Part shown: in pieces, positions 39,898-42,444 of the stretch
How the letters are laid out: every line of letters begins with the position of its first letter
Numbering within the stretch: position 1 is the first letter of the stretch
Assembly: GCA_030610085.1 (NCBI GenBank)
Contig: JAUWSL010000003.1
Coordinates: forward strand, 1 to 42,444
Direction: 5' to 3'
DNA length: 42,444 nt
Origin: Candidatus Aegiribacteria sp.
GTDB lineage: Bacteria > Fermentibacterota > Fermentibacteria > Fermentibacterales > JCC-6
Notes under the pieces: generated by a model
Told to the model about the DNA's origin: nothing
The model's input: only the letters and a program-made list of their open reading frames with translations
The model's database searches: none
Translations under genes and position numbers: made by a program

Positions 39898-39918
39898 AGC
39901 ACTGCCGTCTGGTTCGGC

Positions 39919-40944
39919 CTAGAGTTTTGTAACCAGCGTTCTCATCTCCAGATCATCCTGACTGACGGCGTGTATCAGGTAGGTGCCGACGGGAGCAGTT
40001 TCACCGGATGCCGTCCTTCCGTCCCAGGTGAAGGAGGCACAGACCGCCAGTTCCGTTCTTAGGACGGTACGGCCCGACAGGTCGTAAATGGTCAGATCAA
40101 CCGGTTCGGAAGCACCGGTCACCGATATGCTGACCGAGCCATAGAAGGGATTGGCAGAAACCGTCAGATCTGCCTGTTCCACCGGCAGGCCGCCTTCTTC
40201 TGCGATCCCGGTTGTGATGTCGATCTTGTAGATCTTATCGACGTTCTCATCACTTACCCAGAGGTAGCCGTCAGTATCGAAGCAGAGCCCTCTGGGCATG
40301 ATATCTGCAGGCAGATGGGACTCCGGAATGTAGTCCACCAGCAAATTACCGGTGCAGTAAGCCTTTATAGGACTTTCTGCGGCATCCGTTGCCACCCAGA
40401 TGTCACCGGTACCACTATTGTTTTCATACGCGATGTCATAGTGAGAGATAAGCGCCGGAAGATCATCAATGTAGGGATACGTCTGAACGTAACCGGAGCT
40501 GCTGAAGTACTCGACCACTGGATCTCCGTAATAACCGTTCCCTAGAACGTAAGTGAAATTACCGCCGGAAGCGAGACCAGTCACCGACTGGTATAGCGCG
40601 CTTCCTCAACAGGTAGAGTCGTACAGCCCCTGGTAGGCTCCCGAGGTGGAGTATCTGTATACGTAGCCGTGGTAGACTCCGATATCGGCGCGGAGTATGT
40701 GCAGTGTGTCCCCCTTGATGGCCAGGCCGCTGGGAGTACCTCCGTAAGGGAAGTAGAAGGAGCTGAGGACGGAACCGTTTGAAGGATCCATCTCGTAAAC
40801 GTAGGAGGTCGTGCCGTCTACTGCCCACAGGCTGCCTGATCCGTACGCCAGCCCGGTAATTCCTGTATCCGGAGCATCGATGGTAAGAACGACACCGGCT
40901 CCGAATGCCGCGGGAACCAGTGCTAGTAGAATGATTAACTTCAT
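39919..40944 (-). CDS. secreted beta-propeller protein with T9SS/FlgD-like C-terminal domain; predicted selenoprotein (UGA at codon 113, C-U-G)
   Basis: ORFs 40606-40944 and 39919-40584 are in the same frame, separated only by TGA plus GSALYQS; signal peptide in the first part, sorting-like domain in the second; SECIS-like hairpin directly after the TGA. Confidence 0.8.
40567..40605 (-). promoter_or_regulatory. candidate bacterial SECIS element
   Basis: UGA-GGAAGCG-cgcuau-ACCAGUC-GGU-GACUGGU-cu-CGCUUCC: two perfect 7-bp stems, with a G-initiated apical loop 20 nt after UGA. Confidence 0.78.
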
Positions 40945-41023
40945 TTAATCTCCCTTCTTCAGTAAATCAAACGTATGCACTACTTAAAAGATTGTCTCCA
41001 TTCCTGATACTGTCAAGCGGACT

Positions 41024-41083: not shown

Positions 41084-41332
41084 ATATATACTAATTTAAT
41101 AGGGATTTAAGTAATGCAGGAAGGATTGACAAAGAAATTCATCTGAATTATCTATTTATGGAGGATATAATGAGCAAGCAATCATTAGCAAAAGCTGCGT
41201 TCTTTAGAATAAATAACTGTCAAACCTTCCCGCCTTCATTTTTCGTCCTACCTTACAAAGAACCAGCAAAGTCACGAGCAGTTCTTATTTATCAAGATGC
41301 GGACTGCATTATCCAGAGGAAGGGGAAATGAA

Positions 41333-42444
41333 ATGACAAGAAGAAAACAGTTTTCGCTGTGCATCTGCGCAGCTGTTCTTCTGGCTTTATCCTCAAGCGC
41401 CGCCGCCAGGGGATTGCAGCCCCTGTTTATGCCTTTACCGTCCGGTACGGACGTGCGGCCCGATACTGTATCAGTGCTGCACTCCATCGGTAATATCAGC
41501 TCAGTTGTTATGAACATGGGGATATGGGGACATGGACCTTGGGGTGGGCCTCACACGGCCCTGGAATGGCCGAGCGGTTCCGGCAGCGACTATCTTTGGA
41601 GAGGGGAACTCTGGAGCTGCTGCTTCGGTGATATCACACCCGGAGGTTCCACTGACAAATGGGCGAGCTGTGCCGGTTACGGAAACCTGGAATTACAGCC
41701 GAGCGAAGGATATCCCATGGAGTACATGCTGCCCGGACCGCTGGCTCCGGAGCAGTCGCAGTACGGTGCCGATGACTGGGATCCGCTGTACAACACTGAT
41801 CCATACGGGCTTGGCATCTGGGTGGAGAACTACACATGGGACACACCTGGATTCGATAACTTCATGGCCACGGAGATCGTCTTCACGCATCACAGCGATC
41901 AGGGCAACCCGGGTGTCCCGCTTGACGCCTTCGTCGCCGGGATCATGGGGGATTGCGATGTCGCCACTGCTGATGTGACTGAACCTCATCTTGATGATCT
42001 TGCCTACTACGACGGGCACGCTATCTGGTGCAACGATCCGGATGCGACATTCGAATATGTCTTCGATGGTTCGGTCAATGCGAGCACTCAGGACGATTAC
42101 ACCTACCAGCAGAACCCTGACAATCCGCTGCCACCGGGTGATCCCGATAACATCTGGTACCACTACAACTACTTTGGAACAGACGGAGTCCCGGACAACG
42201 ATGTGGACCAGAACGGCGTGAGTGACCATTTTACAATTCTGGCGAAGGTTGTCGGCACTGACACACTTTACAGGCAGGATCCTGAATCAGGTGTTATACT
42301 GTTCGCAGAAGGAATGCCGTACTGGCACTGCAGCCATACAGTGAGCGATACTACTTACCTTGTGGTTCCAAGGAATCTCGGTTACATGTGGGACGGCGAT
42401 TATCCCGGAAGTTCTGAAGATGATTCGGGAGAACCGCTTCTGAG
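41333..42444 (+). CDS. 5' part of a large secreted acidic protein (runs off the window; absent from the ORF track)
   Basis: Manual translation is open for 370 codons: MTRRKQFSLCICAAVLLALSSSAAA signal peptide, then HSIGNISSVVMNMG, LEWPSGSGSDYLWRGELW and Asp-rich loops (DGVPDNDVDQNGVSD). Confidence 0.85.
   Translation, partial: MTRRKQFSLCICAAVLLALSSSAAARGLQPLFMPLPSGTDVRPDTVSVLHSIGNISSVVMNMGIWGHGPWGGPHTALEWPSGSGSDYLWRGELWSCCFGDITPGGSTDKWASCAGYGNLELQPSEGYPMEYMLPGPLAPEQSQYGADDWDPLYNTDPYGLGIWVENYTWDTPGFDNFMATEIVFTHHSDQGNPGVPLDAFVAGIMGDCDVATADVTEPHLDDLAYYDGHAIWCNDPDATFEYVFDGSVNASTQDDYTYQQNPDNPLPPGDPDNIWYHYNYFGTDGVPDNDVDQNGVSDHFTILAKVVGTDTLYRQDPESGVILFAEGMPYWHCSHTVSDTTYLVVPRNLGYMWDGDYPGSSEDDSGEPLL

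Follow-up and report, generated by a model that had tools for sequence, protein, structure and literature searches.

Most of the known bacterial selenoproteins are redox enzymes that work inside the cell or in the periplasm and have many cysteine (Cys) homologs. Mammalian thioredoxin reductase (TrxR) carries a C-terminal G-C-U-G redox center, in which U is selenocysteine (Sec), on a cytosolic flavoprotein that supplies the electrons. We have analyzed a 42,444-nucleotide (nt) stretch of DNA from Candidatus Aegiribacteria sp. (contig JAUWSL010000003.1 of assembly GCA_030610085.1), hereafter the window, on the minus strand of which a gene with one in-frame TGA is predicted to encode an exported β-propeller with a Cys-Sec dyad. 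As judged from its sequence, the product is a real selenoprotein of a large phylum-wide family that is absent from the selenoprotein catalogs compared. The gene is built like the bacterial selenoprotein genes that have a bacterial selenocysteine insertion sequence (bSECIS) inside the open reading frame (ORF), that is, fdhF and the 119 families tabulated in a 2026 review (PMC13188914): it shows an in-frame UGA followed by a stem-loop with a G in the loop, lies in a genome with selA, selB, selD and tRNA-Sec, and places a Cys near the Sec, the CU and CxxU spacings both being cataloged there. It differs from the families of that table, as they are described in it, by its β-propeller scaffold, its tail of the type IX secretion system (T9SS) type and its multi-copy expansion (one to eight matches per genome). 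Furthermore, nearly all selenoproteins have Cys homologs according to the same review, unlike the present family, for which Cys-for-Sec homologs were not seen. The likeness to TrxR that the first-pass annotation of this DNA had pointed out holds for the vicinal C-U-G, a Cys-Sec pair followed by Gly that could in principle form an eight-membered selenenylsulfide ring. It is limited to this motif because the dyad is internal (residues 112 and 113 of 341) and sits on an exported propeller with neither a flavoprotein nor any other flavin/NAD(P)H domain; moreover, a third of the family copies use C-G-G-U.

The complete gene spans positions 39919 to 40944 on the minus strand, from an ATG at 40944 to a TAG stop at 39921–39919, in a frame that is open save for one TGA at 40605–40603. 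When this TGA is read as U, the product is a 341-aa protein in which the dyad is embedded as ...YDST-C112-U113-GSALYQSVTGLASGG..., whereas translation table 11 gives a 112-aa ORF ending at Cys112 and a separate 221-aa ORF. A six-frame match covers residues 1–341 with exactly one TGA. The codon of Cys112, the partner of Sec, is TGT (40606–40608), and a Cys is found immediately or three residues before U in 82/82 copies, across which the TGA codon of Sec113 (40603–40605) is likewise kept. The coordinates, residues and blade strings of the first-pass annotation, which had proposed a Cys-Sec dyad on a propeller loop at 40567–40620, agree with the translation, and that span contains both the Cys and Sec codons (40608–40603) and most of the hairpin described below.

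Directly behind the UGA, the coding sequence is predicted to fold into a hairpin (40564–40602, minus strand, overlapping codons G114 to A124) with a lower stem GGAAGCG/CGCUUCC, a 7-bp upper stem ACCAGUC/GACUGGU and an apical GGU loop (40582–40580) located 20 nt from the UGA, for a folding energy of -21.9 kcal/mol. All the constraints of the bSECIS model are satisfied, which are, as set out in Fig. 2 of the 2026 review, a loop of 3–9 nt, an upper stem of 4–16 bp, a G in the first two loop positions, a distance of 16–37 nt from the UGA and a minimum free energy of -7.5 kcal/mol or lower (PMC13188914). Taken alone, the window hairpin is only modestly unusual (z of -1.92, with 8 of 200 shuffled sequences folding equally well); the weight of the hairpin comes from the comparison across copies. 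The model is satisfied after 70 of the 82 family TGAs; in two controls, the true-stop TGAs of the source genome (44 of 385) and in-frame positions elsewhere in the same genes (25 of 221), the share is 11%. Pairing in the upper helix amounts to 98.6% across 21 copies, both sides being changed at three pairs, and the covariation reaches 0.277, versus 0.107 in shuffled controls (0/500 reach the observed value) and 0.084 at most for slid partners. For example, UCG-GUG-ACU in one copy, coding for S-V-T, corresponds to AAG-GUU-UCU in another, coding for K-V-S. Such compensatory changes alter the protein; variation in the pairing is hence compensated even where the encoded amino acids are not the same. 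That a bSECIS hairpin inside the coding sequence drives Sec insertion at U113 is thus supported computationally.

To judge from the gene content of the genome, the UGA at 40605–40603 is most likely recoded to Sec via the organism's own SelB/tRNA-Sec system. The source genome (G000) is a 1.4-Mb metagenome-assembled genome (MAG), 66.9% complete, in 76 contigs, of which the window is contig C4. It contains a tRNA-Sec (76.4 bits for a gathering score of 47), a selD gene (316 bits, C48:11201–12124, plus strand), and a selB gene (340 bits, C49:10304–12169) directly downstream of selA (C49:12196–13532, minus strand). Since selD itself carries one in-frame TGA, SelD is probably also a selenoprotein in this organism. 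The selA match lies in two adjacent frames, covering positions 1–310 (413.5 bits) and 309–453 (86.6 bits), which may point to a frameshift, to faulty assembly or to a programmed event. Across the phylum, selB exceeds its curated cut-off in 64 of 70 genomes.

The family was delineated by a six-frame search of 40 relatives and a pattern scan of species genomes, which yielded 80 loci. Among the dozens of matches from the former, nearly every one that spans the site has exactly one TGA, the frame being kept across it down to about 30% identity. At the 80 loci, a TGA is present at the equivalent place in all 82 copies having the N-terminal motif. The first-pass annotation had made its proposal depend on conservation of the Cys/Sec column, and this column is conserved: the dyad is C-U-G in 51/82 copies (44 CUGS, 6 CUGG and 1 CUGM) and C-G-G-U-G in the other 31. 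All named loci belong to Candidatus Aegiribacteria, Sabulitectum, Fermentibacter, Fermentibacteraceae, Fermentibacteria or Hyd24-12, the remainder being labeled "uncultured bacterium." When the propeller alone was used as query, the family was detected in 66 of 70 genomes of the phylum, in all of its 14 genera, with one to eight matches per genome at E ≤ 1e-12; the TGA is present in all 150 matches listed (there are 52 further matches). Outside the order, the 6 genomes searched gave only two weak matches (E of 5.7e-6 and 5.8e-5). By these sequence searches, the family is multi-copy across the Fermentibacterota (Hyd24-12) and was not found outside the phylum in this small sample.

No Cys-for-Sec form occurs among the 82 copies or the 150 matches listed. 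The site is devoid of both Cys and Sec in seven full-length single-stretch representatives and in 11 TGA-less paralogs; these paralogs, which share 25–31% identity and occur in the same genomes, have SDSG, SGLG or SGSG in place of C-U-G-S. Conservation of residues D26 and T27 is 100% among 83 Sec forms versus 6% among 17 TGA-less paralogs, and Y64, Y98, D223 and G226 follow the same Sec-form-specific pattern. As for the TGA-less paralogs themselves (L036–L046; P0112, P0117, P0183, P0058 and P0065), some have a T9SS tail and others end in …W..IK..F.

Public gene calls break the gene in two at the TGA. Each of the 27 best database homologs is a C-terminal piece of 190–221 aa, under the name "hypothetical protein," "FlgD immunoglobulin-like domain containing protein" or "WD40 repeat protein," and in a library of 1.84 billion representatives, the top matches begin at profile position 124/125 or end at 113–116. 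Families treated by Haft & Gwadz (2023) and Haft & Tolstoy (2025) reportedly usually receive NCBIfam models; release 20 of NCBIfam has no model for this propeller, and these two papers may still name the family. Among the 119 prokaryotic selenoprotein families in Table 1 of the 2026 review, there is no propeller, NHL, FG-GAP or T9SS family (PMC13188914). In keeping with the first-pass suggestion of a new class, the family thus has no entry in that table or in NCBIfam. The same review (PMC13188914) and a 2022 review contain no mention of propellers, NHL, Fermentibacter or secretion, and the main texts of BSepDB and deep-Sep no mention of propellers, NHL, FlgD, Fermentibacter or secretion. Our searches found no literature treating both Fermentibacteria and selenocysteine, and selenium is not mentioned in the two founding genome papers (PMC5030696, PMC4846661).

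An AlphaFold model (m1a99a45150b3), computed from 21 family sequences with a predicted local distance difference test (pLDDT) score of 85.3 and a predicted template modeling (pTM) score of 0.69, shows about 19–20 strands in residues 17–246, a linker at 247–256 and an Ig-like sandwich at 259–340. Together with the fold matches, it points to a five-bladed β-propeller formed by residues 17–246 (40207–40896, minus strand). Both halves of the gene contribute to this propeller, blades 1–2 before the TGA and blades 3–5 after it, the N-terminal strand 17–23 having been assigned to the last blade from strand order alone. The best solved neighbors are the plant/bacterial glutaminyl cyclases 2faw, 3mbr, 2iwa, 3nol and 3nok (Z of 22.3–23.5 in VIA-align), which superpose with a root-mean-square deviation of 2.5–3.0 Å across 210–222 residues, followed by YjiK (3qqz, Z of 21.6), while six-bladed NHL domains score 17.9 or less. 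Type I glutaminyl cyclases (Glu_cyclase_2) have the same five-bladed propeller and are the best fold match, but they lack Sec. The family protein gives no Pfam match to PF05096 (Glu_cyclase_2) at E ≤ 1. Sequence homology to glutaminyl cyclase was rejected for now, the profile-profile comparison (hhalign) with cyclases encoded next to family loci returning a probability of only 28% over 62 columns, out of register. At the sequence level, only blade-like NHL and DUF6923 signals are seen, all below Pfam cut-offs. The likeness to NHL propellers (TRIM/Brat NHL domains and the PknD-derived "Pizza" designs) is at the level of the blade, with an E of 2.6e-13 for Pizza6, and DUF6923 repeats reach 25.2 bits, which is below the curated cut-off. 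An NHL repeat propeller was also rejected, since the NHL score of 14.9 bits is under the cut-off of 20 and the model has five blades versus six in NHL.

In our reading of the strand order, blade 2 would consist of strands 70–77, 80–86, 93–99 and 104–109, and blade 3 would start with strand 119–126. The model puts residues 110–118 between strands 104–109 and 119–126, and the C-U pair therefore does sit in the linker between blades 2 and 3, where it had been placed by the first-pass annotation. We take the "xxGLAxx" strands to be the innermost (A) strands, by analogy with NHL repeats, so that in the model residues 110–118 would be the D2-to-A3 loop leading into the innermost strand of blade 3. 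In propellers, the D-A and B-C loops share one face. The dyad is thus predicted to lie on the same face as the D5-to-A1 loop and close to it; this loop, A24-P25-D26-T27, is invariant, though in Sec forms only. Because it would share a face with a loop specific to Sec forms, we regard the dyad as the probable functional center of the protein.

The signal-peptide-like N terminus, MKLIILLALVPAAFGA, of about 16 aa (40897–40944, minus strand), displays a typical n-h-c pattern as read from the translation, and the model has a pLDDT below 50 for residues 1–14. At the other end, residues 259–341 (39922–40170, minus strand) correspond to an Ig-like C-terminal domain of the T9SS-cargo type, which matches Pfam FlgD_ig with an E of 1.3e-09 and 38.3 bits, above the cut-off of 27; the match to TIGR04183 (Por_Secre_tail) has 17 bits, below the cut-off of 23, and PF18962 is precomputed on many close homologs. 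The search for the secretion machinery was aimed at SprA and PorV and found the SprA translocon above cut-off in 5/5 genomes (summed along the frame in four of them). The combination of a putative signal peptide, a propeller and a T9SS-type C-terminal domain supports computationally the export of the protein to the cell surface or the medium, as had been proposed. T9SS cargo of Bacteroidota, such as gingipain with its C-terminal domain, resembles it in the putative signal peptide at the N terminus, in the Ig-like domain at the C terminus that would serve for sorting, and in the SprA translocon of the genome. Literature searches revealed no T9SS cargo with selenocysteine. We know of no experimental study of T9SS in Fermentibacterota.

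Two more exported candidate selenoproteins were observed in the source genome, during a scan for a TGA with coding signal and hairpin that used ad hoc filters and is not a census, since it missed selD. Family B (G000:C69:880–1878, plus strand; L131) encodes a 333-aa protein with the motif FRC-U-GD, a signal peptide and a Por_Secre_tail/FlgD_ig tail, and otherwise no Pfam family. One TGA is present in 26 of the 27 motif-spanning phylum matches listed, and a GGC-loop hairpin with compensatory changes is found ~19 nt past the UGA; the one full-length TGA-less member (in G052) has TGRAD and no dyad. Family C (G000:C70:20499–21746, minus strand; L132) encodes a 416-aa protein with FG-GAP repeats, a signal peptide and a T9SS-type tail, in which the motif SAG-U-C-TGATNPQ directly precedes a DxNxDG loop. 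It has up to 13 matches per genome, and nearly all matches listed carry one TGA. In both families, the TGA is kept phylum-wide, the hairpins have GGC or GGU loops with compensatory changes, and the rare TGA-less members are without the dyad altogether. Family C adjoins the present propeller family (family A) on at least five contigs (G014:C168, G003:C166, G014:C3, G020:C34 and G054:C200).

That Sec is inserted, that the protein is exported and that the dyad is its functional center are, taken jointly, likely in our view. As to the chemistry, for which the first-pass annotation had suggested a redox, metal-binding or disulfide-attacking activity, the dyad comes in two spacings (CU, CxxU) and both orders (CU, UC) across the three exported scaffolds, from which we infer that it fits a nucleophilic selenolate with a resolving Cys. 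Such a pair would cycle through a selenenylsulfide; it would act on extracellular S-S bonds, whether those of polysulfide or elemental sulfur (S0) or disulfides, and ambient sulfide would re-reduce it. The phylum has been reported from sulfur-rich anoxic sites, and S0/polysulfide reduction has been proposed for it in the genome paper (PMC5030696). Contigs from two runs labeled cold seep metagenome hold the gene, X3 in one piece and X1 in part. We favor S-S bond chemistry because of these dyad spacings and orders and of the sulfur-rich habitat with its proposed S0/polysulfide reduction, and a redox reaction with S-S bonds outside the cell, in which sulfide serves as reductant, is accordingly put forward as a tentative proposal, somewhat short of an even chance.

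Ranked next, and nearly as likely, is a role in which the dyad of the same exported selenoprotein binds a thiophilic metal or organometal, namely Hg, Cu(I), Cd, As(III), Ni, Co or thio-Mo/W, for capture or detoxification at the cell surface in sulfidic water rather than for redox catalysis. We give it this rank because the cataloged families with a CU motif cluster in Hg and organometal biochemistry: the motif is cataloged in SaoL (a MerB-like lyase), HgcA, SaoC, the metal-binding double selenoprotein MbdU, KCU-star and a 2Fe-2S protein, and the review ties many selenoproteins to metals (PMC13188914). The Sec-form-specific acidic residues D26 and D223 accompany the dyad, and an obligate Sec would suit a need for a very soft ligand. 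However, the spacings (CU, CGGU) and orders (CU, UC) fit a resolving-Cys redox pair equally well, and there is no metal transporter or mer/ars/cop gene adjacent in the window. Metal binding is possible but less likely than not. A chemistry other than S-S action or metal binding is a further candidate, which we also regard as somewhat unlikely.

Far less probable is that the TGA simply terminates translation, to give a secreted 112-aa fragment and a separate 221-aa protein starting at the GTG at 40584. Gene callers yield exactly these two pieces, and the GTG lies 18 nt past the TGA. Yet the propeller requires both halves, blades 1–2 and blades 3–5, the frame is continuous past the TGA in every copy, and the C-terminal piece would keep an export tail without a signal peptide; the covariation of the SECIS and the phylum-wide Sec machinery also argue against termination, which is in our opinion very improbable.

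There is next to no likelihood that the TGA marks a pseudogene or stems from faulty assembly or sequencing, although the MAG is incomplete and its selA lies in two frames, since the same TGA occurs in 66 of the 70 species genomes. In addition, X3, a DNA contig of another study, covers the entire stretch at 95–99% likeness and has no difference at 40603–40605 among the 40 differences listed (90 further exist). Hardly credible, too, and with no finding in its favor, is a reassignment of TGA to an ordinary amino acid in this lineage (code 4 or 25), because TGA is the commonest true stop in the source genome, where it ends 386 of 749 long ORFs, is the genuine stop of 3 of 21 family genes, and occurs inside each family gene exactly once and in one column.

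Several points nevertheless weigh against an exported selenoprotein with a Cys-Sec functional center that acts on S-S bonds. Sec at U113 is deduced from the DNA, and the Sec/Cys homolog pair that is the classical criterion of the field, which is supporting and not defining, was not found. As folded by RNAfold, 12 of the 82 copies fail the bSECIS model. The T9SS PorV-like matches are all subthreshold, at 125 bits or less for a cut-off of 250. The position and exposure of the dyad are predicted from strand order, no reductant partner, transporter or redox gene adjoins the gene in the window, and the present results are compatible with S-S, metal or other chemistry. Finally, two contigs from metatranscriptome libraries of one study, X14 (1066 nt, covering 39915–40961) and X15 (1005 nt, covering 39963–40954), span nearly exactly the gene and both bridge the place of the TGA, but they are only 90–95% alike, could stem from carried-over DNA and give no information on translation or strand. 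At most, they put both halves of the gene on one transcript-sized unit in a relative.

In the window, the gene has no companion: on one side lies a convergent NlpC/P60 gene, on the other a divergent gene for a secreted protein without Pfam family. The divergent neighbor (41297–42442, plus strand), which runs off the end of the window, has a signal-peptide-like N terminus and a vicinal Cys-Cys pair (…WSCCFGD…). Pfam assigns only housekeeping functions among the eight neighbors in the window, including the NlpC/P60 protein, a SpoU methylase, an epimerase and oxaloacetate-decarboxylase subunits. Elsewhere in the family, where neighbors were clustered using table-11 ORFs, a genuine Glu_cyclase_2 gene (E of 1.5e-73) is found directly upstream and on the same strand in 21 of the 30 loci of the C-G-G-U type, at about positions 500–1440 of each (L060, L096, L097, L099, L102–L104, L112–L115, L117, L119, L121–L124, L126 and L128–L130). 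An upstream cyclase next to a protein with a cyclase-like fold could reflect an origin by tandem duplication or a functional coupling.

Searches for selenoproteins that do not use SECIS elements depend on Cys homologs, as stated in the 2026 review (PMC13188914). The present family is invisible to searches based on Cys homologs because it has no Cys form and is split by gene callers, and it illustrates how entire exported selenoprotein families can escape detection. Gene models of Fermentibacterota need correction at Cys-Sec loci. To the known selenoproteins, this family would contribute a scaffold and a location (T9SS-type export) that are both new, as well as an instance of obligate Sec, which bears directly on why Sec is kept over Cys. 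Looking further, and speculatively, the Fermentibacterota may practice an extracellular selenium chemistry, with at least three unrelated exported scaffolds that carry an obligate vicinal Cys-Sec pair and T9SS-type tails and have no Cys-only versions, a view to which we give well under an even chance. The three scaffolds are the five-bladed propeller, the FG-GAP propeller and a third domain without Pfam family, with up to ~20 matches per genome. If this were true, it would amount to a "selenoproteome" of the cell surface, serving in sulfidic sediments to open insoluble S0/polysulfide or to capture thiophilic metals, and this selenoproteome would be the main reason why the phylum keeps its Sec machinery. 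Together with families B and C, our findings suggest that the selenium demand and the extracellular sulfur or metal chemistry of this widespread, uncultured and anaerobic phylum exceed what its annotation conveys.

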